Part shown: piece by piece, positions 30,268-53,952 of the stretch
Layout: every line of letters begins with the position of its first letter
Position numbering within the stretch: the stretch's first letter is position 1
Assembly (NCBI GenBank): GCA_028870635.1
Contig: JAGWPE010000260.1
Location: forward strand, 2,612 to 66,611
DNA from: Gammaproteobacteria bacterium
GTDB taxonomy: Bacteria > Pseudomonadota > Gammaproteobacteria > Steroidobacterales > Steroidobacteraceae
DNA length: 64,000 bases
Direction: 5' to 3'
Position numbers and translations under genes: made by a program
Notes under the pieces: generated by a model
What the model saw: only the letters and a program-made list of their open reading frames with translations
Told to the model about the DNA's origin: nothing
The model's database searches: none

Positions 30268-30762
30268 ATGAGCGACACGATCACGATCCGGCCGGCAACC
30301 CGCGACGATGTTCCCCTCGTACTGGAATTCATCCGCGAGCTCGCCCGCTACGAGCGGCTGGAGCAGGAGGTCTCGGCTTGCGCGGAGGAGTTGGGTGAGG
30401 CGCTCTTCGGCGAGCGCCGCTATGCCGAGGTGGTGTTCGCCTGCAGCGCGGGCGAGCCCGTCGGCTTCGCCCTCTTCTTCCACAACTTCTCCACCTTCAA
30501 GGGACGTCCCGGAATCTACCTCGAGGATCTGTTCGTGCGCCCGCAGGCGCGCGGGCGCGGCATCGGCAAGCGACTGCTCGCGCATCTCGCGCGCACGGCG
30601 GTGGCGAGGCGCTGCGCGCGCCTCGAATGGGCGGTGCTCGACTGGAACGAGCCCTCCATCGGCTTCTACCGCAGCCTCGGCGCGCTACCCATGGACGAGT
30701 GGACGACCTTCCGCCTCACGGGCGATGCGCTCGCATCACTGGCGGGAAGCGCTGCCGGCTGA
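30268..30762 (+). CDS. GNAT family N-acetyltransferase (diamine/SSAT-like)
   Basis: 164 aa with the acetyl-CoA motif VRPQARGRGIGKRLLAHL. LEWAVLDWNEPSIGFYRSLGA. Confidence 0.85.
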   Translation: MSDTITIRPATRDDVPLVLEFIRELARYERLEQEVSACAEELGEALFGERRYAEVVFACSAGEPVGFALFFHNFSTFKGRPGIYLEDLFVRPQARGRGIGKRLLAHLARTAVARRCARLEWAVLDWNEPSIGFYRSLGALPMDEWTTFRLTGDALASLAGSAAG

Positions 30763-31797
30763 AGGGGACTCCGGAGCCGGCGCCGGCGGCGGCGCCCCCG
30801 GCGGCGGCGCCAATCCCTTGGAGTAGATGACGCGCCCCCGGGGGTCGATGAAGACCGCATCGTACTGCGGCATGCGGTCGATTATCGCCAGAGTCTTCTC
30901 CGGCCCCAGAATGAAAGCCGTTTTCGACATTCCATCGGTCTGGGTAGCCGTGGGCGCGATCACCGACGCGCTGCGCACCAGTTGCGCGGAGTGGCCGGTG
31001 AACGGGCTGAGGATGTGATCGTAGCGAACTCCGTTCTGCACGAACCCGCGGTAGTAATCACCCGACGTGGAGATGGCCTCGTTCGCAAGCGGCACCCGCG
31101 TGACGACTTTGGTCAGGTCCCACGGGTCCATGATCGCGACCATCCACGGACGGCCCCTGTGATCGCCCAGGAGCCGGGAATCCCCCCCGGCCGTCACGAT
31201 CGCATTGCGGATGCCCATCGCTTTCAGGATCTCGATGCTGCGGTCGACCACGTAACCCTTGGCGATGCCGCCCAGGCCGATCGCCATGCCGGGCCGGGCG
31301 AAGCGGACGCTGTGGCGTCGGTCATCGAGGATGAGCTGGCGCCAGCCGACGGTGGGTAACAGAGCCTGGATCTCGGCGTCGGTCGGATGAATGTGCCTGC
31401 GGAAGTGATAGAGCCGCCAGACGGACTCGACGGTGATGTCGAAGGCTCCGTCGGTAATTTGCGAGTAGTGCGTCGAGAGCTTGATGAGGCCGTAGAGCTC
31501 CGGGCTCACCACCACCGGATGCTGCGCCGCATGTTCGTTGATCTGCGAGAGCTGGCTGTTCGGCTTGAAGTCGCTCATCACGTCATCGACATGATGCATC
31601 TCGGCCATCACGGCATCGATGGCGGCATTGGCGTGCTTCGGGTTGGTGTCCCACAGCTCGACGTAGATCCGCGTATCCATGATCGCTTGCGTGCGGGAGT
31701 ACCACTCCGCATGAGCCGGCGCCGGCGCGACGGCGAGACAGAGGATGCAGCCCAAGAGTGCTGAAAACCGCCGCAGGCTCGCAGCCGCGCCCTTCAT
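30736..31797 (-). CDS. apbE: FAD:protein FMN transferase (ApbE family), exported
   Basis: MKGAAASLRRFSALLGCILCLAVAPAPAHA signal. IMDTRIYVELW, SQLSQIN, DGAFDITV, GLGGIAKGYVVD, VTAGGD and ISTSGDY are ApbE hallmarks. Pro-rich C-tail. The track ORF starts at 31815. Confidence 0.88.
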   Translation of the reverse strand: MKGAAASLRRFSALLGCILCLAVAPAPAHAEWYSRTQAIMDTRIYVELWDTNPKHANAAIDAVMAEMHHVDDVMSDFKPNSQLSQINEHAAQHPVVVSPELYGLIKLSTHYSQITDGAFDITVESVWRLYHFRRHIHPTDAEIQALLPTVGWRQLILDDRRHSVRFARPGMAIGLGGIAKGYVVDRSIEILKAMGIRNAIVTAGGDSRLLGDHRGRPWMVAIMDPWDLTKVVTRVPLANEAISTSGDYYRGFVQNGVRYDHILSPFTGHSAQLVRSASVIAPTATQTDGMSKTAFILGPEKTLAIIDRMPQYDAVFIDPRGRVIYSKGLAPPPGAPPPAPAPESPSAGSASRQ

Positions 31798-31831
31798 TCC
31801 GTCATTGCTACTCAATGGATTCCCCGGAGCA

Positions 31832-32740: not shown

Positions 32741-32922
32741 GCGCAGCTTCTAGTGTGAAGCGCTGGATCCGGGCTCCTGCCCGGCCCAGCGCGGTCTCGC
32801 GCAAAAAGCGTGGTTTTTGCCCGAGACCCCCGCCACCTGCGGCGGCGGGGCACCTCCCTGTGCCGGGGCTACGATGTCGTGCTGCTTCATGTTCTCTGGG
32901 TCAACATCGAGTCTATGGGAAA

Positions 32923-33447
32923 CTAAGACGACTTCAGATCGGCGGCGGTCACCGCTTTTTCCTTCTCGAGTACGGCCAGCGCGATGTGGCTGTAATCGGC
33001 GACCGTGCAGGTCGACATCACCTTTTTCAGAACCGCATAAGGCAGCGTCTTGTCGGCCATGATGGTCAGTTCCCGGTGCGCGGGGTCCGCCGCCGTGGCC
33101 GTCGCCCCCACGACCTGCTGGCTCTGAAGCGCGGCCTTCAATGCGGCGATCTCATCGCCGGCCTGCGCGAGGACCTGCGGCACGGTGGCCACGCGCTCGC
33201 CCTGCACATAGATGTCGTCCTTCGTGACGGTCACCACGACCGTCGGATGCGGTGACTGTCGCGCGATCGATTCCGGCAGGGGAATGGCCTTGGCGTTGTG
33301 AATGACCTCGACCTGAGTCGCGTACACCAGGAGGAACGCCACCATCACGGTGAGAATGTCGATGAACGGGACCAGGTTGAGCTCGGCGTCGGCGCGGTGC
33401 CGGAGGTGATGCTGCGCCATGCGGCGCGCGCGATTGGAAATGCTCAT
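32923..33447 (-). CDS. exbD: ExbD/TolR family biopolymer transport protein
   Basis: AELNLVPFIDILTVMVAFLLV is an ExbD/TolR TM motif. 4-nt overlap with the upstream paralog. Confidence 0.85.
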   Translation of the reverse strand: MSISNRARRMAQHHLRHRADAELNLVPFIDILTVMVAFLLVYATQVEVIHNAKAIPLPESIARQSPHPTVVVTVTKDDIYVQGERVATVPQVLAQAGDEIAALKAALQSQQVVGATATAADPAHRELTIMADKTLPYAVLKKVMSTCTVADYSHIALAVLEKEKAVTAADLKSS

Positions 33448-33962
33448 TGCGACACCCGCGCGAGCGGCGGCGCATCGCCGATGGAGATGTCCGGAAAGAG
33501 CTCCGCCTGCACGGTCTGCAGTCCGTCGCTCGTCTCGAAGACACGCACGTGATCCATGACCTGCACCAGCGTGTCATAGGGGGTGTCGGGCTCCAGCAGG
33601 ATGCTGGCGGCCGTCAGGGCCGGGAAGCGGGCCTTGACCTGCTCCAGGTAGCGGGTGAGGCCGGCATAGTCGTAGCCCTGCGCGGTGTTGGGGAAGGTCG
33701 CGAGCGGTCCGGTGTTGCGGTCGGCGACCTCGAGCAGGCTCTTGCGCACCATCACCTCCAGCACGAGACCGGGCGGCGGCTCGCGGAACTGCGCCTGCGG
33801 CGCCGGCAGATGCAGCTGCAGGATGACCGTGTGGGAGAACACGGCCGTCATGAGAAGGAACGTGACCAACACCGTGAAGATGTCGATCATCGACACGAGC
33901 ATCAGCTCGCCGGGCTTGCGCTGGTGTCTCAGGAGCTTGCGCGCCTGATAGGAGCGGCGCAT
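33444..33962 (-). CDS. exbD: ExbD/TolR family biopolymer transport protein (second paralog)
   Basis: LMLVSMIDIFTVLVTFLLM motif and a periplasmic domain. Confidence 0.85.
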   Translation of the reverse strand: MRRSYQARKLLRHQRKPGELMLVSMIDIFTVLVTFLLMTAVFSHTVILQLHLPAPQAQFREPPPGLVLEVMVRKSLLEVADRNTGPLATFPNTAQGYDYAGLTRYLEQVKARFPALTAASILLEPDTPYDTLVQVMDHVRVFETSDGLQTVQAELFPDISIGDAPPLARVSQ

Positions 33963-34004
33963 CGGATTGTCCTCGTCGGTTGCGGCGGTGCGGACCGGCT
34001 CTGA

Positions 34005-34661
34005 TCAGGCCGCGGCCGCGGGCACCGGCGACTGTCTCTCGGTGATCGAGTTGAGGAACTTGACGGAGGCCATCTCCAGGCTGTCGATCAGCTCCGTGGT
34101 CTTGGTCTGCAGCACCGCGTGGATGAGCAGCAGAGGCACGGCCGTCATCAGGCCGAAAGCGGTGCAGTTCATCGCGACCGAGATGCTCGCCGAGAGCAGG
34201 TTCGCCTTCTGCGCCGGATCGATGGTCGCCACCGCGGCGAACGCACGGATGAGTCCCATCACCGTGCCGAGCAGGCCGAGGAGCGTCGCGAGGTTGGCGA
34301 AAGTGGCGATGTAATGCGTGCGTTTCTCGAGCCGCGGCACGATCTCCATCATGCTCTCCTCCATGGCCTTCTCGATGTCGTCGCGGCGGCGGGCGGACTG
34401 CACGCGCGCCAGGCCGTAGTCGAGAACGTGCCCGATGAGCGAATCGGACTTGGAAGTGAGCTGCACGACCTGGCGGAAGTTGCCCTGCGCGAGCAGCGGC
34501 ACGATCTCGTTCCAGACCCTGCGGTTACGGCTCGCCGTGCGGGTCAGGTAAATGTAGCGCTCGAGCGCGATGGACGCGCCCAGCACGAGCACGACGGCGA
34601 TCGGGTACATGAAGTCCCCGCCGCCCTGAAAGAATCTGACGATCAAGCTCCAGAGACCCAT
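34005..34661 (-). CDS. exbB: MotA/TolQ/ExbB proton-channel family protein
   Basis: 218 aa. FANLATLLGLLGTVMGLIRAF and ISVAMNCTAFGLMTAVPLL are conserved ExbB/TolQ TM2/TM3 motifs. Confidence 0.88.
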   Translation of the reverse strand: MGLWSLIVRFFQGGGDFMYPIAVVLVLGASIALERYIYLTRTASRNRRVWNEIVPLLAQGNFRQVVQLTSKSDSLIGHVLDYGLARVQSARRRDDIEKAMEESMMEIVPRLEKRTHYIATFANLATLLGLLGTVMGLIRAFAAVATIDPAQKANLLSASISVAMNCTAFGLMTAVPLLLIHAVLQTKTTELIDSLEMASVKFLNSITERQSPVPAAAA

Positions 34662-35266: not shown

Positions 35267-35267
35267 G

Positions 35268-36059
35268 TCAGTTCCTCGCGTTGGGCGGATGCGCCGGTGC
35301 CCTGGTGACCGGTGCGGGCGGCTGGGCGCGCACACCGGTGGCGCTCGCCGCGGTGGGCTGCCCGCCGGGCGGCACCTTTATCCCCGTTCTGTGCTGCAAC
35401 TCCGCGATCCACATCAGTACCTGCTTGTCCCCGCCGGCGAGCTTCCGATACTGCTCGAAATCGCCGAGCGCGGCCGCCGGCTGATCGAGATAGAGGTCGC
35501 GCAGGACGCCGCGGTTCCGGTACGCGGGAGCATAAGCGGCGTCTGCCGCGATCGCCCGGCCGTAGGACTGCTCCGCATCCTGAAACTTGCCGCCGAGACG
35601 CTGCGTGACTCCGAGCTCGGTCCACGCGAGCGCGCTCCGGGGCTCGCGCGCGACCGCCTGCTGAAGAGCTTGCGCCGCCGCATCGAGATCGCCGTCCTTG
35701 CGATGGAGGATGCCGAGGTCCACGAGCGGCGTACAGAACTGCGGGTAGCGGTGTGCGAGGGTCGCGAGCTGCGATTCGGCCGCAGGGTCGTTCCCGGCGC
35801 CGGCGAGCGCCAGCGCCGCGTCGAATTCCTGCCTCGCTTCGGCCGGTACCGGCGGCGGACCGGCGACGGCCTGAGAACCCCCGCCGGCCCCGGGCCGAGC
35901 CGCATTGCCCGCGGTTGCGAGCTTCGCAGCGCCCGCCGAATGCACGACCACCCATCTGTCTCCGTGCCCGGCATCGCGCCGCGGAGCGACCGAGCACGCC
36001 GACAGCATGGCGAGCAGCGACACGCCGGCGAAGATCTCAATTGAGCGTCTTGACCACAT
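35268..36059 (-). CDS. TPR-repeat lipoprotein
   Basis: Lipobox LLAMLSAC. TPR-like helices (AESQLATLAHRYPQF..., DLDAAAQALQQAVAREPRSALAWTELG..., FQDAEQSYGRAIAADAAYAPAYRNRG...). Confidence 0.75.
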   Translation of the reverse strand: MWSRRSIEIFAGVSLLAMLSACSVAPRRDAGHGDRWVVVHSAGAAKLATAGNAARPGAGGGSQAVAGPPPVPAEARQEFDAALALAGAGNDPAAESQLATLAHRYPQFCTPLVDLGILHRKDGDLDAAAQALQQAVAREPRSALAWTELGVTQRLGGKFQDAEQSYGRAIAADAAYAPAYRNRGVLRDLYLDQPAAALGDFEQYRKLAGGDKQVLMWIAELQHRTGIKVPPGGQPTAASATGVRAQPPAPVTRAPAHPPNARN

Positions 36060-38859
36060 CTGACATCAGCTCTGTCTTGCCGTAGCGCGCCGGATCCAGC
36101 TGGGCCAGCGCAGCGAAGCTCTTGCGCACCCACTCGTCGTACACCCCCTGGCTCGCGCGCGCCGCGTTCAGCCCGTACATCTTGATGGCCTGCTCCTCGA
36201 AGGGGAATACCTGATCCTCGAGCAGGGAGTTGTATTCGTCGAGCTCCTGGCCGGTCACGTTGCGCGGCCGCTCGGAGGCGAGCACATCCTGCGCCAGCCG
36301 CTGGTAGAGGTCGGCCATCTCGTAAGTCGCTGCCGTGGTGACCTCGGCCACGCCGTACGAGGCGGCCAGCCGGTAGGCCGCCATCGCACGCTCGAGCGCC
36401 CTGCGCTTGGCCTTCAGAGTCCGCGCCAGCGGCAACGTCAGGCGAATGGCCCGAAAGTCCTCGCGCGGCTCGGCGGCCAGCGCAAGCTGCGCCTTCGCGG
36501 CGAGAAAGTGCGTCCGCGGCGTGCGCTGCGCGCCGGCTTCGGCGTCGGCCTGCACGATCTCCCGATACCAGTGGTCGCGGGCGCTCGCGTCACCACCGGC
36601 GGCGGCGTAGTCCGCCAGCCGTTGCCTCGCCTCCTCCGCATCCGCGAGGGGAGCGGGATATTGCGCCACGAGCTTCTCGAGCACCGTCATCGCGTGGGGA
36701 ATGTCGTGAGCCTGGGCATAGAGATCCGCCGAGCGGCGCAGCGCCTCCTTCCTCACGGCAGGTGTCTGCGCAGGCTCGGCGGCGATGGTCTCGAACTGCT
36801 GCGCCGCCTGCATCGGCTGGTTGGCGCCGGCATACGCCACGGCAAGCTTCGCATCCACATCGCTCGTGAGCGCGTGGTGCGGGAAGCGCGCGCGAAAGTC
36901 CTGCAGCACCTGGATGGCGCGGCCCCACTCCTGCAACCGGATGAGCTCCGCGGAAGCATCATAGAGCGCGGTGGCGCAGATGCTCGAGCCTGGAGCCACC
37001 TGCTCGACGCGCAGGAAGTCTCCCACGGCTCCGTCGCCATCGCCCGCCTGCCGCTTCGCGGCTCCCTGCCGATACACGGAGGCGGCTATACGCTCGGTCA
37101 GGTCGGCAGTCATCTTGGAGTCGGAGGCGGCGAGCTCGCGTGCCTGGATGAAAGCGGGCTCCGCCTCGGCGAACTTGCCCTGGTTGTAATTTGCCTCACC
37201 GACGATGGTCCAGGCGATGCGCCGTTTCGCCGCGTCCGCGGGCGGATTGCGCGCCAGCAGTATTCCGGCGATCTTCACGGCCTTTGGCAGGTCGCCCGCC
37301 GCAAACACCGCCTCATCGGCGCGCGTCAACACGCCGGCGCTGTCAGGATGGTCCGGAAATGCCTGTGCGAATCTGACGCCCGAATCGATCGCTCTTCGCT
37401 TCAGGTCGGCCAGCGCGCTGCCGCTCATGCCCGCCTCGGCCTTCTGGTACGCCGTCAACGCGGCATAGCCAGCGCTCTCCGACTGCGCATTCCGCGGGTA
37501 GTCGTAAGCGGTATGCTCGTACTCCGCCGCCGCGTCCGCATACTGCTGTGCAGCGAACAATGCGTCGGCAAGCCGGTGATTCAACTCCGCCGCATCGGTC
37601 GCGGCGGGGAACGAGTCGAGGTATTGCCTGTACCATCGCGCGGCGGCCGCGTAGTCACGCACATCGTGGGTCCGCTGAGCCATCGCGTGATCGTAGGTCG
37701 CCACATCCCTCAGATCGCTCTCGAGCTCCGCGGCGACTTCCGGGTGAGCGGCCCGTGTGCGCGTATTCCAATAAGCGGAGCTGAATCCGTAGTGCTCGAC
37801 GTAGTCCTGCTTGGCCTGGAAGACGAGCTGGCTGAAGCCTCCCTTGGAATAGGCGCGAATGGCGCGGGCCGCGAGATCCGGTGCGGCATCCGATTGCGGG
37901 TTGCTGTCGACGTAAGCGAGGTAAGTTGCGGCGGCGTCCTGGTAACGCTGCTTCGCCACGTAAAGATCGCCGAGCCGCGAATAGAGCAGCGAATCGTAGG
38001 GCCGGGCGCCATACCGGCCGACGAACCGGTCGATCGACTGTGCCCCGGAGTCCTGCGAGAAGGTGATGCTCATGACGCGCAGCGTGTCTTCCACCAGCTC
38101 ACGATCCGCGCGCCGCAAGTCGGTCAGCGGCCGTACCCGTCCCTCGGGCCCCAACAGCTCGCAATCCAGGAGCTTTGCGAACTGGGGCAGGCTCTGCTCC
38201 TGCAGCGATGCCTTGTAGAGCGACCAGCCGCTCTTGTACAGGCTCTGCACATAGAACGGCGATGCGGCGCCGCGGGCGATCACCGCCGCGTACGCCTGCT
38301 CCGCCTCGGAGTAGCGGCGGGCCGAGAAGAGCAGCTCGCCGCGCCGGAACTGCACTTCATCCATGTCCTTGGCGCCCGGATAGCGCTGCACGATGAGGTC
38401 GAGAGTGTGCAGCGCCCGGTCCGGCTGGCCGGTGGTGTCATACGCTCGCGCGAGCTGATAGAGCACCTCGTCGTTATGCTCATAATCGGGGTAGAGCTCG
38501 AGCAGCGTGCCGTAGAGCTTGATGGCCTCGGCCCCGTGCAGATCGATCGAGGAGAGCTCGCTTTGCATCCGCTGCAGGTCCCCAGCGTCGAGGTTGAGGT
38601 CTCCCAGCCGGCGCAGCGCCTCCGCCCGCAGCTTGGGGTCCTTCGCCTGCAGCGCCAGGAATTTCCGATATCCCTCCATCGCGGTCGAGTCGCTGGCGCT
38701 GACCGCACCGCCCGGCACCACCTCCATGGGGTGCGACTCGAGATCGCGGATCGTCGGCGCGCTCGCGGGATCATCGCCCCGGGACTCGGCAATGGGACAC
38801 AACGCCAGGCAGGCGGCCACCACCCCCAACAGCACGAGCACCAGGCGGGCAGCTCTCAC
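36037..38859 (-). CDS. Large periplasmic TPR-repeat protein (940 aa)
   Basis: Signal peptide MRAARLVLVLLGVVAACLALCPIAES. More than 15 TPR/YbgF-like helical repeats run throughout. 4-nt overlap with the upstream gene. Confidence 0.8.
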   Translation of the reverse strand: MRAARLVLVLLGVVAACLALCPIAESRGDDPASAPTIRDLESHPMEVVPGGAVSASDSTAMEGYRKFLALQAKDPKLRAEALRRLGDLNLDAGDLQRMQSELSSIDLHGAEAIKLYGTLLELYPDYEHNDEVLYQLARAYDTTGQPDRALHTLDLIVQRYPGAKDMDEVQFRRGELLFSARRYSEAEQAYAAVIARGAASPFYVQSLYKSGWSLYKASLQEQSLPQFAKLLDCELLGPEGRVRPLTDLRRADRELVEDTLRVMSITFSQDSGAQSIDRFVGRYGARPYDSLLYSRLGDLYVAKQRYQDAAATYLAYVDSNPQSDAAPDLAARAIRAYSKGGFSQLVFQAKQDYVEHYGFSSAYWNTRTRAAHPEVAAELESDLRDVATYDHAMAQRTHDVRDYAAAARWYRQYLDSFPAATDAAELNHRLADALFAAQQYADAAAEYEHTAYDYPRNAQSESAGYAALTAYQKAEAGMSGSALADLKRRAIDSGVRFAQAFPDHPDSAGVLTRADEAVFAAGDLPKAVKIAGILLARNPPADAAKRRIAWTIVGEANYNQGKFAEAEPAFIQARELAASDSKMTADLTERIAASVYRQGAAKRQAGDGDGAVGDFLRVEQVAPGSSICATALYDASAELIRLQEWGRAIQVLQDFRARFPHHALTSDVDAKLAVAYAGANQPMQAAQQFETIAAEPAQTPAVRKEALRRSADLYAQAHDIPHAMTVLEKLVAQYPAPLADAEEARQRLADYAAAGGDASARDHWYREIVQADAEAGAQRTPRTHFLAAKAQLALAAEPREDFRAIRLTLPLARTLKAKRRALERAMAAYRLAASYGVAEVTTAATYEMADLYQRLAQDVLASERPRNVTGQELDEYNSLLEDQVFPFEEQAIKMYGLNAARASQGVYDEWVRKSFAALAQLDPARYGKTELMSDVVKTLN

Positions 38860-40814
38860 GGCTGCGGCGCTCCCGCCTTGCTCTCGCCGCCGGAATGAGC
38901 GGCCTGGTCATAGAGCGTGGCGAGCGCGAACTGCGCCTGGACCCGGTAGCCCTGCAGGCGTTTCTTCTGCCGCTCGAGGTCCTGCACGGCCAGGTCGGCG
39001 AGCGCACGGCTCTGTGTCTGCTCCGCCGCCGCGAGCCGGATCTGAAGAGCCCCGACACGCTGCTGCAAGGCACTCACCCGTCCCGCGAAACCGCCGGTCT
39101 GCGCCTGCAGGAGCTGCCGTCCGCCCTGCAGGCTTGCCCAACCCTGTTGCGCCCGCACCAACTCGAAATCGAGGCTGCGCAACTCCTTGTGCACGCTCCA
39201 CAGGCGCGCCGCGAATTGCTGGTCCATCTGATAGAGCAGGACCCCCCTGACCAGAGCCAGGCGCTCTCTCAGCTTCGCGTATGCAGGGGTGTCTGGATCG
39301 CGGGCGAGCATCGCCTGCGCCCGCAGCACGCGTCCCCACTGCGCCGCCTGGGCCGGCGTCGCGAGCGCCGCCACATCCCGGGTGCGCTGCACCTGCGCCA
39401 GCCGGTCCGCGAGCGCGGCGCGGCGCTGCTGCAAGGTGTTGAGCTCGCCGGAGGTCAGCAGCGCATCCACCTTTGGAGCACGCTCCGCGTAGGCGCGGCG
39501 GCGGGCCACAATCATCTCCTGGAACGCGTCCATGCTGGTCGACCATTGTCCGAGCATCCGCTCCATGAGCTTCAGGTCGCGATAGTTTCTAAGTCCCTGC
39601 TGGAAGTCCGAGCCTGCGAACACGGTGTACAGGTAATGGGATTCCGGATCGTCGGGGACGTTGCCGAGCTGCCAGAACCAGCCGTAACTCAGCCGATCCG
39701 GCAGCGCGTCATCATCGAGCGGGTCGTTGCCGATGTAACCGGAGGCAGCGGAATCGCTCTCGTGGGCCAGCAGCTGCGCGAGCAGACTTCCGCCGCGAAT
39801 GCGGGCAATGGCCGCGTCGATCTGTGCCGACTCATCGTCGTAGGCGCGCAGCGCGGTCCGGTAATATTGTGCCGCCTGCCCCGGCGCTTTCAGCTGGACG
39901 AAGGCATATGGCACCGTAAGGTCGGCCTCCTCCACCGCGGGATCGAACGCGCCGCGGGCCTGCAGCGCCAGCCAGGGAGTGAGCGCGGCGCGGTAGTTGC
40001 CGTCCGCCGCCTCGGCCCAGCCGGCGGCGAGCAGCGCTTCGCTCGAGAAAGGCCCATCCAGCCGCACGCGATCGAGCGCCACCCTCGCCTGGGCAGGCTC
40101 TTTCGCCTGCAGGTAGGCGAGACCCAGCGCCAGGTTGGCGCGGTCCTTGAGGGCCAGCATCTCGGGCGCGAGTGCGTACATCGTGCCCACGGAGGTGAGA
40201 ACGGGCGCCGCCTCCGCCAGCCTGCCCCCGCGCACCAGCGCGATCCCGAGGTTGAGTCGGGCGTATGCCGTCCATCCCTGCTGGGAGCCGCGCCAGCGCT
40301 CGAGCAACTCGGCGGCCTGGTCGAATCGGCCCTCATGCATCCACACGTTCGCAAGCAGCAGCTCCTTCTGCGACTCGAGCTGCGGCGACATCCGCATGCT
40401 GATGCGGGTCAGATCCCGTTCCGCCTCGGCATACTGTCCGCGGGCGTAGAGCGCCTGGGCAAGGTAGAGCCACGCGCGATCGCGCACGCCCGTGGGCACA
40501 TCGCTCGTCAGCAGCCGCTCGAACGACCGGTTCGCCCGGTCGTACATCCCGAGTGAGAGATAGAGTCCCCCGAGCAGCAGGTGCGCGTCGGCCTGATGAT
40601 GGGGCAGCCCCTGCCAATGCTCGTAGGCGAGGAGCCGCGTGGCCGCCTCGAAGTCCTTGCCCTGATAGTAATAAAAGAGCACATCGCCATAGGGCAGGTC
40701 CTGGATACGCACTTCGGGAAGCGCCTCCGGATCGCGCAGGCGTGCCGCGGCCGGCGCTGCTGCGGCGAGCAGCGTCACCGCGGCGAGGGCGCACAGGCAC
40801 GCCGAGCGGACCAA
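38856..40814 (-). CDS. Periplasmic TPR-like plus long coiled-coil protein (652 aa)
   Basis: Signal MVRSACLCALAAVTLLAAAAPAAA. The N-half has TPR-like repeats. The C-half is Q/A/R/L-rich heptad-like coiled coil. Confidence 0.7.
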   Translation of the reverse strand: MVRSACLCALAAVTLLAAAAPAAARLRDPEALPEVRIQDLPYGDVLFYYYQGKDFEAATRLLAYEHWQGLPHHQADAHLLLGGLYLSLGMYDRANRSFERLLTSDVPTGVRDRAWLYLAQALYARGQYAEAERDLTRISMRMSPQLESQKELLLANVWMHEGRFDQAAELLERWRGSQQGWTAYARLNLGIALVRGGRLAEAAPVLTSVGTMYALAPEMLALKDRANLALGLAYLQAKEPAQARVALDRVRLDGPFSSEALLAAGWAEAADGNYRAALTPWLALQARGAFDPAVEEADLTVPYAFVQLKAPGQAAQYYRTALRAYDDESAQIDAAIARIRGGSLLAQLLAHESDSAASGYIGNDPLDDDALPDRLSYGWFWQLGNVPDDPESHYLYTVFAGSDFQQGLRNYRDLKLMERMLGQWSTSMDAFQEMIVARRRAYAERAPKVDALLTSGELNTLQQRRAALADRLAQVQRTRDVAALATPAQAAQWGRVLRAQAMLARDPDTPAYAKLRERLALVRGVLLYQMDQQFAARLWSVHKELRSLDFELVRAQQGWASLQGGRQLLQAQTGGFAGRVSALQQRVGALQIRLAAAEQTQSRALADLAVQDLERQKKRLQGYRVQAQFALATLYDQAAHSGGESKAGAPQP

Positions 40815-40817
40815 GCC

Positions 40818-41995: not shown

Positions 41996-43654
41996 TCAGG
42001 CGTGGATCGGCGGGAAGGCGATGAGCGCCTCCTGATCAGTGAGCGAGCCCAGTCCCTGCTTCGGGAACTTCGTGCTGAACTGCCCCTGGAACTGGGTGTG
42101 CAAGGACATGTAATTGAGGACCACCATCTCGACGAGCTGCTCGACGGAGTTCGCTCCCGGGCTCGAGGTGCTGACGACCGAGCCGTCGGCGCTGAAGTAA
42201 CCGATCTGCTGGCTGGCGGCCCCGTTGAGCGGCGCCGTCCGGCCGTTGGGATTGTAGAGGAGAAAGAAGGTGGCCGCGACTGCCGAGGAGTCGCCCTGCC
42301 AGGCGAGCTTGTCGCGCCCGGCCGGGGTGGTGTCGACCATGCTGCTCGAGGTGAGCGAGCCGTCGCTGAACACGTAGATCATGACGGGCTTGCCGAGGCG
42401 CTGGGCGTACTCGAGCACGGCGCCGATCATCTGACCCGCCTTGAAATTGCGCGTCTCGCCCGTCGCCCGCGTGTTGTCGTGATAGTCGAACCCGCCGATG
42501 GAGATCGTGCCCGCCCCTGCGTAGCCGTTCAGCACGAGTTTCATGACCGTCGCCGTCATGGCGACGTCGGAATCGCTGAAGTCCGAGGCGGTGAAGATCG
42601 GTGTGCCCCCGCCGGTGATGTTCGCATCCTGCCTGGGATCGAGGTCCGACGGGTTGCCGAAATTCGCCGAGTTGTAGGCGGCCTTCACATAGTTGCAGCG
42701 CACCTGGTTCTTGAGCTGCGCATCGGACGGCGGATCGGTGTAGAGCTGTACGCCGGGCGTGCCGGTACCGGTATTGGGCTCGGTCAGCACGCCCGTGAAG
42801 GCGGATGCCGGGTCCGATGCGCCGGCACTGTAAGGAGTGGTGCCGGAGCTGATGCGCGCCTGGGATTCCTGCACCGCCACGGAGAGCTCATCGGCACTCG
42901 TCCCGGAGCTCACCAGTCCGACGGCATCGCTCGGCCGATCGATCGTGCTCGGCTGCAGCGCAGAGTTGATCGGCACACCGCCGAGACTCGGCGGCGCCAT
43001 GGAATTGCCGCCGGAGATCGTGGGCTCCGTGCCCACGAGCGTCAGCAGCGAACCGCTGGCGCCGACGTTCGCGATGCCGTACATGGGATTGTGGGGATTG
43101 ATGTTGGTGTCATTCTCCGACAGCGCGGGGAAGACCGCCCCATTGGTGCCGGCGGCCGTGGCCGGGGTCGTGGCTTTCGACAGTATGCCGCGCAGGATGG
43201 CCCCGTCGGAATGCCACAGGAGGCCGAGCGCATTGCTCACGAACCCGGCGGAGCTCGGCACCATGTTGCCCGGAACGCCCATCTTGCCGTAGCCGGCGGT
43301 GGAGAGGAAATTCGCCTGGCCTCCCTGCACGCCCACGATGACCTCCGAGCCCACCAGATTGGCGCCGCCGGCGAGATCGAAACAGATGAAGGGTACCAGG
43401 CCCGCGCCCAGCGATATGTCGCACTGTGTGGTGCCGGTGGCGAGGGTCCCGATGTCGCTGTCGAGCGCAATGGCCGCGCCGGCCTTGCCCGGCTTCAGCA
43501 GAGCGGCGAGCCACGCCGGCGCCATCACCAGTCCCGAGGCGCCCATGAAACCCGCGGAAAGCAGCTCCCGGCGCGTGACCGGACGCCTGTGGTTCTCGTG
43601 CAGGATCGGCTCGTGCAGCGCATGCGGACGGGGAGGCTTCTTTCGGATGAGCAT
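41996..43654 (-). CDS. Tat-exported DUF1501/DUF1552-like protein (552 aa)
   Basis: Twin-arginine leader VTRRELLSAGFMGASGLVMAPAW. GGFDYHDNTRATGE resembles the metal-site motif of DUF1501-type (alkaline-phosphatase-superfamily-like) proteins. The family assignment is tentative. Confidence 0.6.
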   Translation of the reverse strand: MLIRKKPPRPHALHEPILHENHRRPVTRRELLSAGFMGASGLVMAPAWLAALLKPGKAGAAIALDSDIGTLATGTTQCDISLGAGLVPFICFDLAGGANLVGSEVIVGVQGGQANFLSTAGYGKMGVPGNMVPSSAGFVSNALGLLWHSDGAILRGILSKATTPATAAGTNGAVFPALSENDTNINPHNPMYGIANVGASGSLLTLVGTEPTISGGNSMAPPSLGGVPINSALQPSTIDRPSDAVGLVSSGTSADELSVAVQESQARISSGTTPYSAGASDPASAFTGVLTEPNTGTGTPGVQLYTDPPSDAQLKNQVRCNYVKAAYNSANFGNPSDLDPRQDANITGGGTPIFTASDFSDSDVAMTATVMKLVLNGYAGAGTISIGGFDYHDNTRATGETRNFKAGQMIGAVLEYAQRLGKPVMIYVFSDGSLTSSSMVDTTPAGRDKLAWQGDSSAVAATFFLLYNPNGRTAPLNGAASQQIGYFSADGSVVSTSSPGANSVEQLVEMVVLNYMSLHTQFQGQFSTKFPKQGLGSLTDQEALIAFPPIHA

Positions 43655-47422: not shown

Positions 47423-47460
47423 GGCACCCGTTCACTCCCAAATGCCGATGCGCGGGCAGC

Positions 47461-47490
47461 ACTATACCGGCTGGAAATGGCGGAAACCAA
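47461..47490 (-). promoter_or_regulatory. Possible sigma-70 promoter for the minus-strand arm
   Basis: On the minus strand: TTGGTT (47490-47485), 18-nt spacer, TATAGT (47466-47461), ~38 nt upstream of ATG 47422. Prediction from pattern alone. Confidence 0.25.
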
Positions 47491-47777
47491 CGTCGCAGGA
47501 CGCCGACATTCCTGTTGTTTGATGTCACTTTCCAACAATCCCCGTCCATCGCCGCCGCAGTCCGCGCTGTTGGCTCGATCGGCGCCCGCCAAAGTGCGAG
47601 TCCGTTCACGGCGGTGCACTGACATGAGAGGGCCTACTAGCGCGGCTCGAATCGCGGACCGGCCGCAAACGTGACCGGATCGACACGGCCGCAAGAACGG
47701 CTGCGGCGACGCTCAGGTTATGTTACGTTCGCCCCTCGCCGGAATCGGCCGCGACGGGCCCGTCCGGAGTGGTTGGC

Positions 47778-50444: not shown

Positions 50445-50452
50445 GACCAGGC

Positions 50453-51217
50453 TTGCGCAGCGCCCTGACCGCCCTCCTGTTGCTACTTGCAATGCTCATG
50501 GCTCCGGCCGTGTGCAGCGCCCACCTGTTCAAGCACCACGCGCGCCGCTACGTGCAGGTATACGTCAAGACCCCATATCTCGAGCTGCACACGGGACCTG
50601 GCCGTGGCTATCCGGTATTCGACGTCGTCCCGCGGGGCGAGAGTGTCACCGTACTCTTCCGGCGTACGCAATGGCTGAAGGTCCGTACTCGCCGGGGCGC
50701 CGAGGGATGGGCGTCGGAAGACGACATGCTGCAGACAGTGCTCGCCGACGGCCGGGCCCTGCCGCTGCACATCGGCAACCGCGCCGGATTCACCTCACAC
50801 CGCTTCGAGGCGGGAGCATTCGCGGGCGTCTATGGCGGCGCGAACCTCGTCTCCGCATACACGTCCCTGTCGTTCAACCCGCAGCTGGCCGTCGAGGCGT
50901 CGGTCGGCCAGATCCTCGGCAGGTATTCCAACGGCGTCACCGCCGACATCGGCCTCACTCACGTGCCGATGCCGCAGTGGCGGCTGAGCCCCTTCCTGAT
51001 GCTCGGCCTCGGGGTATTGCACGTGGAGCCGAAGGCTACTCTGGTTCAACCGGCGAACCGCACCGAGCAGACGGCGTATGTGGGGGGCGGCTTTCGCTAT
51101 TACATCGGCCGCAGCTTCTTCCTGCGCGCCGAATACAAGACTCATGTCGTGATCACGACGCAGAATCGAAATCAGGTGGAGGACGAATGGAAACTCGGGT
51201 TCGCGGTCTTTTTCTGA
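50453..51217 (+). CDS. SH3-like domain fused to an outer-membrane beta-barrel domain
   Basis: TTG 50453 gives the signal (M)RSALTALLLLLAMLMAPAVCSA; an ATG alternative lies at 50492. SH3_3-like YLELHTGPGRGYPVFDVVPRGESVTVLFRRTQWLKVRT..GAEGWA. The C-terminal barrel ends in the aromatic ...WKLGFAVFF. Confidence 0.65.
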   Translation: MRSALTALLLLLAMLMAPAVCSAHLFKHHARRYVQVYVKTPYLELHTGPGRGYPVFDVVPRGESVTVLFRRTQWLKVRTRRGAEGWASEDDMLQTVLADGRALPLHIGNRAGFTSHRFEAGAFAGVYGGANLVSAYTSLSFNPQLAVEASVGQILGRYSNGVTADIGLTHVPMPQWRLSPFLMLGLGVLHVEPKATLVQPANRTEQTAYVGGGFRYYIGRSFFLRAEYKTHVVITTQNRNQVEDEWKLGFAVFF

Positions 51218-51921
51218 CGGCGGCGCTGGCGGCGCTGCTCACGTTGCCGGGATGCGCCACTGTGCATCGGTGGCGCGAGCACCGTGCCGAAGTGCGCGCG
51301 GCGAAGGAAGAGGCGCGCGCGGAGGCCGCGCAGACGAACCCGTCCGAAGGCAGCGACAGCGTGCCGCAGGGCGCCATCCAGCCGCGCATCGAGCGGCGCA
51401 GGGTCAAGGTGCCGAGGATTCGCAGCTCGAACCTCGAGCTCGGTGCGCATTACGGCGTCATGTCGATCGAGGACTTCGGCTCGCATCCGGCGTACGGGCT
51501 CGATCTGGCGTACCACCTGACCGAGGACCTCTTTGTCCGGGCGGAAGTCGGCCGCTCGACCGGCGGACTCACCAGCTTCGAGACGCTGGGCGGCAACATC
51601 CGGCTGCTGACCGAAGGTGAGAGGAAGTTCACGTACTACGATCTCGGGCTGGGCTACAACTTCCTTCCGGGCGAGGCCTTCTTCGGCCGCAGCCGTGCGA
51701 TGACCAGCTCCTTCTACGTCATCGGCGGCGCGGGAGCCACCCAGTTCGCCGGGGACAAGAAGTTCACGGTGACCGTCGGCGGCGGCTATCAGGTGCTGCC
51801 GGCGGACTGGCTGGCCGTCCACGTGGGATTCGAGGATCACATGTTCCAGTCGGCTCTGCTCGGCGCCAACAAGCTGACCAACAACCTGGAAGCGGGCGTC
51901 GGCGTCACGGTCTTCTATTGA
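51187..51921 (+). CDS. Lipoprotein with outer-membrane beta-barrel domain
   Basis: METRVRGLFLTAALAALLTLPGC lipobox, a charged linker, then alternating beta-strand pattern ending ...NNLEAGVGVTVFY. 31-nt overlap with the preceding gene. Confidence 0.7.
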   Translation: METRVRGLFLTAALAALLTLPGCATVHRWREHRAEVRAAKEEARAEAAQTNPSEGSDSVPQGAIQPRIERRRVKVPRIRSSNLELGAHYGVMSIEDFGSHPAYGLDLAYHLTEDLFVRAEVGRSTGGLTSFETLGGNIRLLTEGERKFTYYDLGLGYNFLPGEAFFGRSRAMTSSFYVIGGAGATQFAGDKKFTVTVGGGYQVLPADWLAVHVGFEDHMFQSALLGANKLTNNLEAGVGVTVFY

Positions 51922-51938
51922 GGCTCGGAGGATACGAC

Positions 51939-52427
51939 ATGAGGAATCGAATCGCGGCCCTGGCCGCCATCCTGACGCTCGCCGTGCCGGCTTGGGCCGC
52001 AGCCGCCGGCGTGCAGGCCCCGGCGTTCACGCTGCAGTCCGTCGACGGCAGGACGGTGAGTCTCGCGCAGTTCAAGGGCGATGTGGTCATGATCAACTTC
52101 TGGGCGAGCTGGTGCGGCCCCTGCCGGCAGGAGATGCCGCTGCTCGACAGCATCTACAAACAGTACAAGGACATGGGTTTCGTCCTGCTCGGGGTGAATG
52201 TCGAGCCTGACTCGCACAGCGCCAACGCCTGGCTGAAGAAGACGCCGGTCAGCTATCCCATTCTGTACGATCCGAAGAGCCAGGTGAGTCAGCTCTATCA
52301 GGTGCAGGCCATGCCGACGACGGTCATCGTCGACCGCCAGGGCATCGTGCGGTTCGTGCACAACGGCTACCTGCCGGGTGATGAGAACCAGTACATGAAC
52401 AGCATCAGGACGCTGATCGTCCAGTAG
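51939..52427 (+). CDS. TlpA family thiol:disulfide oxidoreductase (paralog 2)
   Basis: A GGAG Shine-Dalgarno sequence lies 8 nt upstream of ATG 51939. Signal MRNRIAALAAILTLAVPAWA. APAFTLQSVDG...VVMINFWASWCGPCRQEMP (CGPC). Confidence 0.85.
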   Translation: MRNRIAALAAILTLAVPAWAAAAGVQAPAFTLQSVDGRTVSLAQFKGDVVMINFWASWCGPCRQEMPLLDSIYKQYKDMGFVLLGVNVEPDSHSANAWLKKTPVSYPILYDPKSQVSQLYQVQAMPTTVIVDRQGIVRFVHNGYLPGDENQYMNSIRTLIVQ

Positions 52428-52480
52428 GCCATCTCATGCACATAATGCTTGCCCACTGGCTCAAACGGGGCACATCCCTT

Positions 52481-52540
52481 CGCGCTGGCGGACCTCAGGG
52501 CGGAGCTGCCCCGGGCCGCTTGCTCGCCTGCTTTCGCACC
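52481..52540 (+). repeat. Partial copy E of the structured intergenic repeat
   Basis: CGCGCTGGCGG...CCCCGGGCCGCTTGCTCGCCTGCTTTCGCACC aligns with the 3' halves of copies A and C (…GGGCCGCTT-N8-GCTTTCGCAC). Confidence 0.5.
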
Positions 52541-52753
52541 TCGCTCGTGGCGATAGCAGCGCTAGGTTCAATCTCGGCGTGCTCGCCCATCGAGCCGTGG
52601 GTCAAGCCGTACGAGCGCGAGCATCTCGCCGATGCGATCATGGCGCTCGATCGGAATCCGGTCTCGAGCACCTACCTCGACCACGTGTTCGAGACCCGCG
52701 AGGGCGCGCGGGGCGCTACGGGCGGCGTCGGGGGCGGCTGCGGATGCAACTGA
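52520..52753 (+). CDS. DUF4266 lipoprotein
   Basis: Lipobox AALGSISAC, then SPIEPWVKPYEREHLADAIMALDRNPV...HVFETREGARGATGGVGGGCGCN, the characteristic DUF4266 body and C-terminal GGGCGCN. TTG 52520 or GTG 52547 are the likely starts; the track ATG 52436 would add a non-signal-like extension that includes the repeat. Confidence 0.7.
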   Translation: MLACFRTSLVAIAALGSISACSPIEPWVKPYEREHLADAIMALDRNPVSSTYLDHVFETREGARGATGGVGGGCGCN

Positions 52754-53952
52754 GCCGGGCACTTCGCGGACGGCAGTCGCGCGGCTGGGCCACGCGCGGC
52801 CTGGCCGCTCTGTGCCTCGCCGCGCTGCCGGCCCTGGCCGGCGTGCTGCCCGAAGACCGGGCCGACCTGCTCTATCATCGCTACCAGGGCGGGGGCATCA
52901 CCGTCCAGGGACCGTCGATCCTCGTCCAGAAGAGGATCGGCGATCACTTCGCGGTCAATGCCAACTACTACCAGGACATGATCTCGAGCGCATCGATCGA
53001 TGTCCTGCTGTCCGCGAGCCCCTACAAGGAGACGCGCACGCAGAAGAGCGTCGGCGCGCAGTATCTGCACGGCAAGACCACCTACAGCGCCGGATTCATC
53101 GACAGCGTCGAGCCGGACTACAAGGCGAACACCTCATACTACTCGGTCAGCCAGGACATGTTCGGCGATCTGACGACCGTCACGCTCAGCTACAGCCGTG
53201 GTTGGGACCAGATTTCGCGCGACATCAAGGTCAACGGGGCGATCGTCAACGACCCGATGTTCCACCAGCGGGCCGATCACCGCGTCTACGGGCTGAGTAT
53301 CAGCCAGATCCTCACCCGCAGTCTCATCGGCACGCTCGACTACCAGTTCTCCAGCGACCAGGGTTATCTCGCCAGCCCGTACCGGGAAATCCGTTACGTG
53401 GATCCGAACAACCCCGTCGGCTACTCGCTCGCGCCGCAGATCTATCCGGGTACGCGGACCATGGACGCATTCTCGGGCTCCCTGAAGTATTACCTTCCCT
53501 ACCGCGCCGCGCTCACCGGGAAATACCGCTTCTTCTCCGACTCCTGGGGTATCGTCGCGCATACGCTGCAGGTCGATTACGTGCAGCCGGTCAGGCACCA
53601 CTGGACGCTCGACGGCAATATCCGCTACTACCGCCAGGGCGCGGCCAGCTTCTTCAGCGACCTCTTCCCCTACGCCAACTACTCCAACTACATGGCGCGC
53701 GACCGGGAGCTCGCGGCTTTCCACAGCATCACGTTCGGCTTCGAGGCGTCGTACGCCTTCTCGATCCCGCGCCTCACGTGGATCCAGAAGAGCACCGCGA
53801 CCCTGCGCTTCGATCGCATGATGATCAGCTATCTCGATTACCACGACGCGCTGTACTCGAAGTTCGATCCAGGCGCGATCAAAGCAGGCCAGGAGCCGCT
53901 CTACTCCCTCGACGCGAGCATCTATCAGGCGTACTTTTCGCTGTGGTTCTGA
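52744..53952 (+). CDS. DUF3570 domain protein (predicted outer-membrane beta-barrel)
   Basis: ATG 52744 overlaps the DUF4266 stop by 10 nt. Signal ...LAALCLAALPALAG. LLYHRYQGGGITVQGPSILVQK... and an alternating-strand pattern ending ...YQAYFSLWF. Confidence 0.75.
   Translation: MQLSRALRGRQSRGWATRGLAALCLAALPALAGVLPEDRADLLYHRYQGGGITVQGPSILVQKRIGDHFAVNANYYQDMISSASIDVLLSASPYKETRTQKSVGAQYLHGKTTYSAGFIDSVEPDYKANTSYYSVSQDMFGDLTTVTLSYSRGWDQISRDIKVNGAIVNDPMFHQRADHRVYGLSISQILTRSLIGTLDYQFSSDQGYLASPYREIRYVDPNNPVGYSLAPQIYPGTRTMDAFSGSLKYYLPYRAALTGKYRFFSDSWGIVAHTLQVDYVQPVRHHWTLDGNIRYYRQGAASFFSDLFPYANYSNYMARDRELAAFHSITFGFEASYAFSIPRLTWIQKSTATLRFDRMMISYLDYHDALYSKFDPGAIKAGQEPLYSLDASIYQAYFSLWF

Follow-up and report, generated by a model that had tools for sequence, protein, structure and literature searches.

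A candidate composite envelope system in a Steroidobacteraceae genome: a Glt-like core complex linked to a DUF3570 flavinylation module and haem lipoproteins

The stretch of DNA described here (the window) comprises 64,000 nucleotides from Gammaproteobacteria bacterium (GTDB family Steroidobacteraceae; assembly GCA_028870635.1, contig JAGWPE010000260.1, positions 2,612 to 66,611 of the forward strand). Between positions 30736 and 53952 it carries two divergent gene arms whose products sort into four modules: a Glt/Agl-type core complex with its leader gene u211; a set of ApbE, DUF3570, DUF4266 and thioredoxin-like proteins; a trio made up of a haem protein of 405 amino acids (aa), a LamG lipoprotein and a Tat-exported protein; and a hydrazine-synthase-like (HZS-like) lipoprotein with two small outer membrane (OM) barrels. 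Each module is of a known kind and two have been published as uncharacterised units; literature searches found no paper linking a Glt-type core complex, the flavinylation module and haem proteins. The locus may constitute one composite envelope system, in which a proton-driven Glt-like trans-envelope machine would serve an OM redox complex; we favour this reading tentatively, and the individual steps of the mechanism set out below are much less certain than the overall picture.

A preliminary description of the same sequence had proposed a single trans-envelope redox unit driven by the proton-motive force and could match it to no described system. The first proposal is reasonable because the two arms co-occur through rearrangements, with the reservation that the unit is modular and its Glt arm is sometimes not adjacent. 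The second did not survive: the arm of TPR, ExbB/ExbD and TonB-like proteins has the layout of the Agl/Glt core complex (PMC3169522), and ApbE, DUF3570, DUF4266 and a thioredoxin-like protein together form a published flavinylation module (PMC8238504). Both of these systems, though described, are functionally unsolved.

The G+C content of the window is 67%, and coding frames are clearly told apart by the G+C content of the third codon position (GC3). The minus arm consists of 14 co-directional genes running from 47422 down to 30736, one fewer than previously counted, and independent gene calls in relatives agree with this layout (13 genes plus ApbE). Its close packing was borne out: in order of transcription the junctions measure 24, 24, 1, 13, 3, -4, -23, 1, 128, 42, -4, 182 and 16 nt, 10 of the 13 being overlaps or gaps of 25 nt or less and the exceptions those of 42, 128 and 182 nt. 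Across a divergent gap of 346 bp (47423-47768) lie the six genes of the plus arm (47769-53952), as had been reported, successive genes being separated by 8, -31, -4, up to 92 and -10 nt. The true starts of three plus-arm genes lie inside the longest open reading frames (ORFs), at 51187 for the barrel lipoprotein, about 52520 for DUF4266 and 52744 for DUF3570. A second barrel gene (50453-51217) fills an apparent gap, where the longest ORF of the next gene is non-coding sequence. The TonB-like gene is read in the 31832-32740 frame, which has a high GC3 and matches TonB_C and the AgmX/PglI model; a longer overlapping ORF (31812-32804) has no match.

Several other statements of the preliminary description hold as well. 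Read from their sequences, all products of the locus are exported or membrane proteins, with a Sec signal, lipobox, Tat motif or membrane helices. Lipoboxes are present in the 833-aa LamG protein, the 891-aa HZS-like protein, the barrel lipoprotein, DUF4266 and the 263-aa TPR protein and probable in ApbE and the 940-aa TPR protein; the products with neither lipobox nor Tat motif carry a Sec signal or an N-terminal transmembrane segment. Four CxxCH motifs and one CX4CH are spread over three exported proteins, with one CxxCH in the 405-aa protein, two in the LamG protein and one in the HZS-like protein, which also contains CTQGGCH (CX4CH). Both TlpA paralogues have a CxxC motif (CDSC in TlpA1, CGPC in TlpA2). 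No cytoplasmic enzyme, ABC transporter, regulator or TonB-dependent receptor is found in the region with Pfam and NCBIfam.

Luciano et al. (2011) described a core complex of gltC, gltD, gltE, gltG, aglR, aglQ and aglS, which is encoded by one operon in Gamma- and Betaproteobacteria that do not glide, in Geobacter and in Fibrobacter; it has no assigned function there, and outside the myxobacteria it includes one additional gene (PMC3169522). We assign the TPR/motor arm to this type because its gene order, protein sizes and AgmX/PglI domain match. As in the core complex and the Agl-Glt and Agl-Nfs machines (Luciano et al. 2011, PMC3169522; Wartel et al. 2013, PMC3858216; structural model, PMC11761067), there are one TolQ-like and two TolR-like genes in a single-operon layout, a TonB-like transducer of about 300 aa with an AgmX/PglI-type C-terminal domain, and three TPR proteins, exported and in matching order, of about 640, 940 and 160-260 aa; a small additional gene separates the gltE-like gene from the aglR-like one. 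The sizes in the window are, in order, 652/940/263/(158)/218/172/174/302 aa, to be compared with 634/941/243/(locus-tag gap)/217/170/... aa in Methylibium and, in reverse order, 321/162/176/221/(locus-tag gap)/162/939 aa in Marinobacter (Table S3 of PMC3169522). The entries for Teredinibacter, Saccharophagus and Thioalkalivibrio are similar, and the published homologues measure 634-648 aa for GltC, 939-964 aa for GltD, about 160-260 aa for GltE and 217-221 aa for AglR (PMC3169522).

Downstream of the GltC-, GltD- and GltE-like genes, the MotA_ExbB gene and the two ExbD genes, whose products are 29% identical to each other, lie adjacent in the same operon like aglR, aglQ and aglS. They are followed by the gene for the GltG-type transducer, of 302 aa as against 308-334 aa in published cases. 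This protein scores 67 bits on NCBIfam NF033768 (AgmX/PglI C-terminal domain), above the curated cut-off of 40, and 28.7 bits on Pfam TonB_C, and gives a partial C-terminal match to the GltG equivalog model (E 1e-10). Gene calling in one relative likewise gives a 302-aa gene here, and a PDB sequence search with the TonB-like protein returned nothing significant. The 263-aa lipoprotein has a weak match to the NCBIfam GltE model (24 bits).

The small exported protein u158, for which Pfam and NCBIfam give no match even at E up to 10, is conserved at the same place in relatives; this is the site of the additional gene of the non-myxobacterial core complex, and the locus-tag gaps of Table S3 stand at its position (PMC3169522). 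The leader protein u211 likewise has no match in Pfam, NCBIfam (E up to 10) or PDB. Its gene is always located directly upstream of the GltC-like gene and moves along when the arm is inverted or relocated, and the protein is among the best conserved of the arm (44-96% identity to that of the window).

Differences from Agl-Glt are equally clear. The locus lacks the cytoplasmic platform (GltI, AglZ, MglA) as well as GltH, GltJ and GltK, its TonB-like protein is short and has no FHA domain, and the partners are haem and flavin proteins instead of an adhesin or spore-coat polymer. The two OM barrels of about 250 aa and the nearby beta-propeller lipoprotein resemble GltA/B and CglB in kind, the barrels not being likened to GltA/B as orthologues. 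Of candidate counterparts to the Group A genes of a full gliding or spore-coat machine (GltA/B/H barrels, GltK, GltF, GltI, GltJ), there are the two small barrels, one of which passes TIGR04565, and neither a cytoplasmic TPR giant nor a second TonB-like gene; a complete gliding machine was rejected on the absence of Group A and cytoplasmic parts.

The motor also invites comparison with ExbB-ExbD-TonB and TolQRA-Pal, with which it shares the protein families, a TonB_C-type domain and YbgF/CpoB-like TPR repeats; unlike these systems, the locus has three large TPR proteins and no TonB-dependent receptor, TolB or Pal. The best NCBIfam match of the MotA/TolQ/ExbB protein is TolQ, below its cut-off, and all Ton and Tol equivalog models score far below theirs. 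Ordinary TonB uptake was rejected, no product of the locus or of the related loci having a Plug or TonB_dep_Rec match. A Ton-like reductive uptake can be imagined, in which DUF3570 or the small barrels would admit an oligomer or a metal (iron, for example), the energy being supplied by the TolQR-like motor with the TonB-like protein; reduction or processing of the incoming substrate would fall to the haems, flavins and thiol proteins. The ExbB, ExbD and TonB_C family matches fit this, as do the three OM barrels beside the motor, and the LamG protein and Tat enzyme could bind and trim the substrate. We nevertheless regard it as quite unlikely: neither the cluster nor its conserved relatives encode a plug-domain receptor, an ABC importer, an iron transporter or a permease of the inner membrane, conservation of the cluster does not extend to the downstream MFS gene, and three large TPR proteins are typical of Glt/Nfs machines and not of Ton.

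The second published unit was recognised by Méheust et al. (2021, eLife), who reported clusters of ApbE, DUF3570, a thioredoxin-like protein and DUF4266, the last with a CXC motif (PMC8238504). In Chlorobium, ApbE was shown to flavinylate DUF3570 at two [S/T]GA[S/T] motifs, and a thiol/flavin electron relay of open purpose was proposed for DUF3570 systems (PMC8238504). All four components, including an exported ApbE, are present in the cluster. The DUF4266 protein ends in GGGCGCN in the window and in 61 of 63 related loci, and TlpA2 has CGPC in about 98 of 112 loci. DUF3570 contains a conserved tandem motif, DMISSASIDVllSAS, which reads DMISSASIDVLLSAS in the window and offers two tandem Ser/Thr-x-Ala-Ser/Thr sites; SGAS, TSAS and TTAS occur at these sites in relatives, the Gly being often replaced. 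The DUF3570 barrel is treated as a predicted substrate of ApbE. Unlike in the published clusters, the ApbE gene here closes the Glt arm and is separated by 21 kb from the DUF3570 gene, which lies on the other arm, there is no DsbD nearby, and the redoxins score on AhpC-TSA and Redoxin instead of PF13899. DsbD is not obligatory for the module, because 316 of the listed clusters lack it (PMC8238504). The setting of the module among haem proteins and a motor is not described in the available portion of PMC8238504.

In the trio, the 405-aa protein has one CxxCH in 145 of 146 loci. Its similarity to PSD2 (DUF1585; 21.5 bits, cut-off 25.8, E 2e-4) and, over the CAGCH site, to PSCyt3 (DUF1588; 16.5 bits, cut-off 27, E 0.01) is below threshold, and a PDB sequence search with it found nothing significant. 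The LamG protein has two CxxCH motifs in 158 of 165 loci; across 18 diverse homologues CGGCH and CSQCH do not vary, and a conserved H-N-C-W comes after each of them. Its family forms 630 clusters at 50% identity (E < 1e-30), with at least 556 relatives among GTDB species genomes, and the closest relatives are Steroidobacteraceae metagenome-assembled genomes (MAGs), at up to 88% identity. No exact match to the window protein is on record in public assemblies. Fragments 99-100% identical to the LamG and Tat proteins of the window (P0050, P0474) occur on 1-3-kb contigs of a MAG named "Gammaproteobacteria bacterium"; this organism, or one almost identical to it, has thus already been sampled, though only in pieces.

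The third member of the trio belongs to a family of more than 6,700 members at 90% clustering. Pfam gives no match, DUF1501 and DUF1552 included, for the 58 family members scanned at E up to 10 (the window protein and 57 homologues); NCBIfam gives none for the window protein, and a PDB sequence search gave nothing significant. Modelling from the single sequence reached a predicted local distance difference test score (pLDDT) of 32, and an AlphaFold2 model from the 58-sequence alignment was used instead (pLDDT 66.5, predicted template-modelling score 0.69). All 50 PDB matches listed by Foldseek for this model belong to the alkaline-phosphatase superfamily, weakly so (E 0.05-0.4, template-modelling scores about 0.15-0.2), and residues D93, D390, H392 and D431 are invariant; the protein possibly has an alkaline-phosphatase-superfamily fold, which we treat as a lead only. 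Some NCBI MAG records (P0474, P0493, P0494, P0503) name it "general secretion pathway protein GspF". Because there is no Pfam match and the architecture is that of a soluble Tat-exported protein, this name is probably a propagated misannotation.

Haem proteins of the planctomycete PSCyt/PSD families, known from Pfam, pair with Tat-exported DUF1501 or DUF1552 proteins. The trio resembles such pairs in combining an exported CxxCH protein weakly similar to PSD2/PSCyt3, a LamG haem protein and a Tat-exported partner, and differs from them in that all Pfam scores are below threshold, DUF1501 and DUF1552 are lacking, and the unit has three genes instead of two. The trio is followed by TlpA1, which is 31% identical to TlpA2 and is replaced by ApbE in a marine lineage. 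TlpA/ResA proteins keep apocytochrome CxxCH sites reduced, and the two paralogues, with their CxxC motifs, might possibly act as cytochrome-maturation helpers.

The HZS-like lipoprotein consists of a beta-propeller, an HZS_alpha middle domain with CNGCH (Pfam 47.9 bits, cut-off 26.6) and a C-terminal domain with the CX4CH site. Like the alpha subunit of Kuenenia stuttgartiensis hydrazine synthase (PDB 5c2v/5c2w), it has an N-terminal propeller, a middle domain that closes with the haem alpha-I CxxCH, and a haem domain at the C-terminus; three segments align collinearly with 5c2v_A over the full length, CNGCH falling on CSGCH. It differs in that the overall score is only 26 bits, the protein is a lipoprotein and the host is not an anammox organism. 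On the NCBIfam hydrazine-synthase-alpha equivalog (NF052339) it reaches 43.9 bits against a cut-off of 800, and no homologues of the beta and gamma subunits or of hydrazine dehydrogenase are found in the locus. Identity as a hydrazine synthase was rejected on the missing partner subunits and the score far below the equivalog cut-off, and we regard the protein, by its domain match and architecture, as a structural relative of the alpha subunit. The second haem site (residues 764-770 in the window) is CxxCH in 84 loci and CX4CH in 29, including the window.

A small-molecule periplasmic redox enzyme, acting for instance on nitrogen oxides or hydroxylamine, might be centred on this protein, with the other haem proteins as carriers and TlpA and ApbE confined to maturation. 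The middle domain above its Pfam cut-off, the collinearity with 5c2v_A including the active-site haem motif, and the role of TlpA/ResA proteins are in keeping with such an enzyme. It would leave the motor, TPR scaffold, barrels, LamG domain and lipoprotein anchoring unexplained; the equivalog score, the absent subunits and dehydrogenase, and the variability of the second haem site also speak against it, and we think it very unlikely.

Next to the HZS-like gene are those of the two small barrels. The first product combines SH3_3 (41 bits) with a weak OMP_b-brl match and is called as a 248-258-aa gene in relatives; the second scores 146 bits on NCBIfam TIGR04565 (OMP_myx_plus; cut-off 60). Both of these and the DUF3570 barrel end in an aromatic residue. 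Literature searches found no relevant paper on the TIGR04565 or NF033768 models.

We compared 163 loci, 80 from GTDB species, 80 from metagenomes and 3 found through a distant GltD-like protein, onto which the window proteins were mapped by tblastn. The GTDB set was seeded by an eight-sequence LamG alignment and keeps the 80 closest of at least 556 loci; its sources include Steroidobacteraceae, Woeseiaceae and a MAG labelled Ectothiorhodospiraceae, and distant lineages are under-sampled. The metagenome scan, seeded with distant LamG relatives, mostly regained the same group of 42-48% identity. In the closest relatives the 10-kb flank ends inside the TonB-like gene, short of the ApbE position of the window. 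Among loci with a LamG identity of at least 40%, all those testable have the trio, 115 of 116 have the HZS arm and 92 of 93 have DUF3570; the Glt arm is adjacent downstream in 80 of 97 and present anywhere in 69 of the 76 fully flanked loci. A check of whether the two arms co-occur, called for by the preliminary description, thus finds them together in nearly all related genomes and through several rearrangements, independence being mostly not seen.

The linkage is kept where the Glt arm is inverted after ApbE (L142, L144, L148, L156), where it has been relocated behind DUF3570-ApbE-TlpA (L158) and where the TonB-like gene is convergent on DUF3570 (L133). ApbE itself occupies at least three positions: after the TonB-like gene as in the window, convergent beside DUF3570 in many loci, and in the interval between the Tat protein and u211 in the marine lineage. 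In this large lineage, with a GltD-like protein only 40% identical to that of the window, the same operon is found and ends right after the TonB-like gene. The arrangement is far beyond chance: more than 100 independent loci show it, at protein identities as low as about 40%, and the cluster is widely conserved in soil and marine Gammaproteobacteria. It is also modular: the Glt arm is not always adjacent, and the trio stands alone in the most distant relatives. The divergence of the modules is correlated (Spearman 0.57-0.89; LamG versus GltD-like 0.88, GltD-like versus DUF3570 0.89), which shows co-inheritance, not function.

One 6.9-kb contig binned as Gemmatimonadales (L048, DATLXS010000154.1) carries LamG and Tat proteins 59-66% identical to those of the window. 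Because this is as close as Steroidobacteraceae relatives, a binning error is likely, or otherwise a recent transfer.

How might such a system work? In the Myxococcus model the AglRQS motor acts on the TonB-like GltG, whose C-terminal domain binds GltD; the GltA/B barrels, which expose a beta-propeller lipoprotein, are reached by GltC through their periplasmic N-termini. If the locus works like Agl-Glt and Agl-Nfs, an inner-membrane motor fed by the proton gradient would pull or turn the TonB-like protein, which would act on the GltD/E-like scaffold (940 and 263 aa) and through it on the GltC-like adaptor (652 aa). The adaptor might hold the periplasmic N-terminal extensions of the two small barrels, and these could be what positions, exposes or moves the OM redox partners, namely the haem lipoproteins and the DUF3570 barrel with its predicted flavin. 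Electrons might reach the flavin and the haems through a thiol relay leading from TlpA via the CxC of DUF4266 to flavin mononucleotide (FMN), as proposed for DUF3570 systems, and the LamG domain and Tat enzyme would bind or process an extracellular substrate, probably polymeric or insoluble. Porin-cytochrome conduits of the MtrCAB type combine an OM barrel, lipoprotein c-type cytochromes and an envelope flavin cofactor. The analogy is functional only: the locus shows no sequence relationship to them, its haems are few (five sites in three proteins), the flavin would be covalently bound to the barrel protein, and a proton-driven motor is attached.

A number of observations weigh against a single composite system. 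The Glt/Agl assignment depends on gene order, sizes and one domain, and on NCBIfam equivalog models the scores are far below the cut-offs (GltG 41 of 650, GltE 24 of 225, GltJ 24 of 450 bits). GltA/B-type barrels are reported to be restricted to Myxococcales and Bdellovibrionales (PMC3169522), and the two small barrels are not detectably similar to each other. The DUF3570 motifs of this clade are SSAS/LSAS, not [S/T]GA[S/T], and the 64-kb window contains no inner-membrane electron donor of the DsbD/CcdA or quinol dehydrogenase kind. Seven of the 76 fully flanked loci have no Glt arm anywhere, and several metagenome loci, like Lentisalinibacter and Woeseiaceae, have no adjacent arm. More distant loci (LamG below 40% identity; L087-L089, L110) have the trio only, in unrelated contexts, and correlated divergence is expected from shared ancestry alone.

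The modules could accordingly be separate systems that happen to be co-localised. The trio, HZS arm and DUF3570 would then form a self-contained redox system of the periplasm or OM, the TPR/TolQR/TonB-like arm would be a Tol-Pal paralogue for general envelope maintenance, and the neighbourhood would have been inherited within one order. Consistent with this, 17 of 97 loci lack the Glt arm downstream, and in Lentisalinibacter salinarum and a Woeseiaceae MAG the genes that flank the trio and HZS/DUF3570 arm are cytoplasmic and unrelated, the Glt arm, ApbE and TlpA2 all being absent from the vicinity. YbgF/CpoB models match the 940-aa protein, and the best score of ExbB is on TolQ. DUF3570 modules and Glt core complexes have each been described elsewhere with no reference to the other. 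In one mosaic locus (L081, CAWACM010000011.1) the Glt arm is 83-94% identical to that of the window and the trio only 46-72% (Tat 46%, LamG 63%; HZS-like 67%), which suggests that redox modules were exchanged within an otherwise close relative. Against separate systems stand a link that survives at least four physical arrangements and extends, at about 40% identity, to the marine lineage, in which the ApbE gene is flanked by those of the Tat protein and u211 within the same operon; the ApbE that ends the Glt arm of the window 21 kb from the gene of its predicted substrate; TlpA paralogues in both arms; and the 1-24-nt gene junctions that lead from the trio into the Glt arm. We consider separate systems somewhat unlikely and retain the composite system as the preferred reading.

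If the composite reading is extended to other organisms, the Glt/Agl core complex of non-gliders might, ancestrally or in a major natural form, be a proton-driven machine that positions, exposes or drives an OM haem/flavin redox complex made up of the di-haem LamG and HZS-alpha-like lipoproteins, an FMN-bearing DUF3570 barrel and a hydrolase-like Tat-exported enzyme. Mechanical energy from the inner membrane would power redox chemistry outside the cell, with something insoluble or polymeric as substrate; the gliding and spore-coat machines of myxobacteria would then be later re-uses. This is possible, if doubtful.

Table 1. Features of the locus and its immediate neighbour in the window
Feature	Position	Strand	Remarks
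ApbE	30736..31815	-	FAD:protein FMN transferase; exported, probably lipoprotein; last minus-arm gene; Pfam ApbE 264 bits
TonB-like / GltG-like transducer, 302 aa	31832..32740	-	N-terminal transmembrane segment, Pro-rich linker, C-terminal TonB_C-type domain
ExbD/TolR-like protein 2 (AglS/AglQ position)	32923..33447	-	Pfam ExbD 66.6 bits; Asp in transmembrane segment
ExbD/TolR-like protein 1 (AglQ/AglS position)	33444..33962	-	Pfam ExbD 44.2 bits
MotA/TolQ/ExbB-type proton channel, 218 aa (AglR position)	34005..34661	-	Pfam MotA_ExbB 99 bits
u158, small exported protein, 158 aa	34790..35266	-	signal peptide MRRSLALLIVAAWAAIPIARSQ; no family match
TPR lipoprotein, 263 aa, GltE-like	35268..36059	-	Pfam TPR; lipobox LSAC
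Large exported TPR protein, 940 aa, GltD-like	36037..38859	-	TPR and YbgF-like repeats
Exported TPR and coiled-coil protein, 652 aa, GltC-like	38856..40814	-	TPR matches
u211, exported, coiled coil and beta-rich domain	40818..41453	-	no family match
TlpA/ResA-type thiol-disulfide oxidoreductase 1 (CDSC)	41467..41994	-	AhpC-TSA / Redoxin matches
Tat-exported 552-aa protein, unnamed family	41996..43654	-	TRRELL Tat motif
Di-haem LamG lipoprotein, 833 aa	43679..46180	-	Laminin_G_3 68.9 bits; lipobox LTGC
Exported mono-haem protein, 405 aa	46205..47422	-	one CxxCH; sub-threshold PSD2/PSCyt3
Divergent control region	47423..47768	.	conserved non-coding blocks
Hydrazine-synthase-alpha-like lipoprotein, 891 aa	47769..50444	+	Pfam HZS_alpha 47.9 bits; lipobox LGGC
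SH3-domain protein with OM beta-barrel	50453..51217	+	SH3_3 41 bits; GC3 frame plot; ends ...AVFF
OM beta-barrel lipoprotein, charged N-terminal linker	51187..51921	+	TIGR04565; lipobox LPGC; ends ...VTVFY
TlpA/ResA-type thiol-disulfide oxidoreductase 2 (CGPC)	51918..52427	+	Redoxin / AhpC-TSA / Thioredoxin matches
DUF4266 lipoprotein	52520..52753	+	C-terminal CxC; Pfam DUF4266 78 bits
DUF3570 OM barrel, predicted ApbE substrate	52744..53952	+	Pfam DUF3570 136 bits; ends ...FSLWF
SYLF/Ysc84-family exported protein	54021..54908	+	NCBIfam BPSL1445-family SYLF, below cut-off

An alignment of 12 loci shows a TATAGT -10-like box in the divergent region about 40 nt before the 405-aa gene, together with the conserved blocks GCCGTGAaCGGaCTCGCAcTTTG, CTAGTAGG and GAAyGTAACrTAA, which are kept down to about 60% protein identity. 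Box and blocks are candidate promoter or operator sites. Scans for consensus promoters and terminators gave no more sites than shuffled sequence, and Rfam has no match in the window.

The SYLF/Ysc84 gene starts 68 nt past DUF3570, and Pfam Ysc84 is found at the same place in relatives. A homologue is present in 23 of the 37 loci with enough flank, in 21 of these 23 within 1.5 kb beyond DUF3570, and the gene stays close even where ApbE is inserted between it and DUF3570. It is possibly a seventh member of the plus arm.

The flanking genes are unrelated to the locus: phosphoenolpyruvate (PEP) carboxylase and a GNAT protein on one side, and the SYLF protein, an MFS transporter, OpgG and an AsmA-like protein on the other. 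A 1034-aa minus-strand ORF (27481-30585) runs antisense to the PEP carboxylase gene (27499-30243, plus strand). Spurious long antisense ORFs are common at such a G+C content, and this one was rejected as spurious, codon-position G+C and an NCBIfam score of 728 bits favouring the plus frame. A sigma-54-dependent response regulator and rpoN (16723-18189, minus strand; 22592-23968, plus strand) lie 13-25 kb upstream of the cluster. In one distant trio locus (L110) a sigma-54 activator is located at 4235-5632, 3 kb upstream.

The locus and its more than 100 relatives tie a core complex known since 2011 to the DUF3570 flavinylation module known since 2021 and to conserved haem lipoproteins, in places within one operon. 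Even should this link prove to have no functional meaning, 23 kb of "hypothetical" envelope genes would still have been sorted into defined, recurring modules. If it is functional, it would supply a first concrete hypothesis of what an entire class of envelope motors originally did, point to a new way to couple the proton-motive force to OM redox chemistry, and provide a tractable gene set for study in the Steroidobacterales, which are abundant in soils and sediments. The locus makes the question of what the core complex does directly testable.

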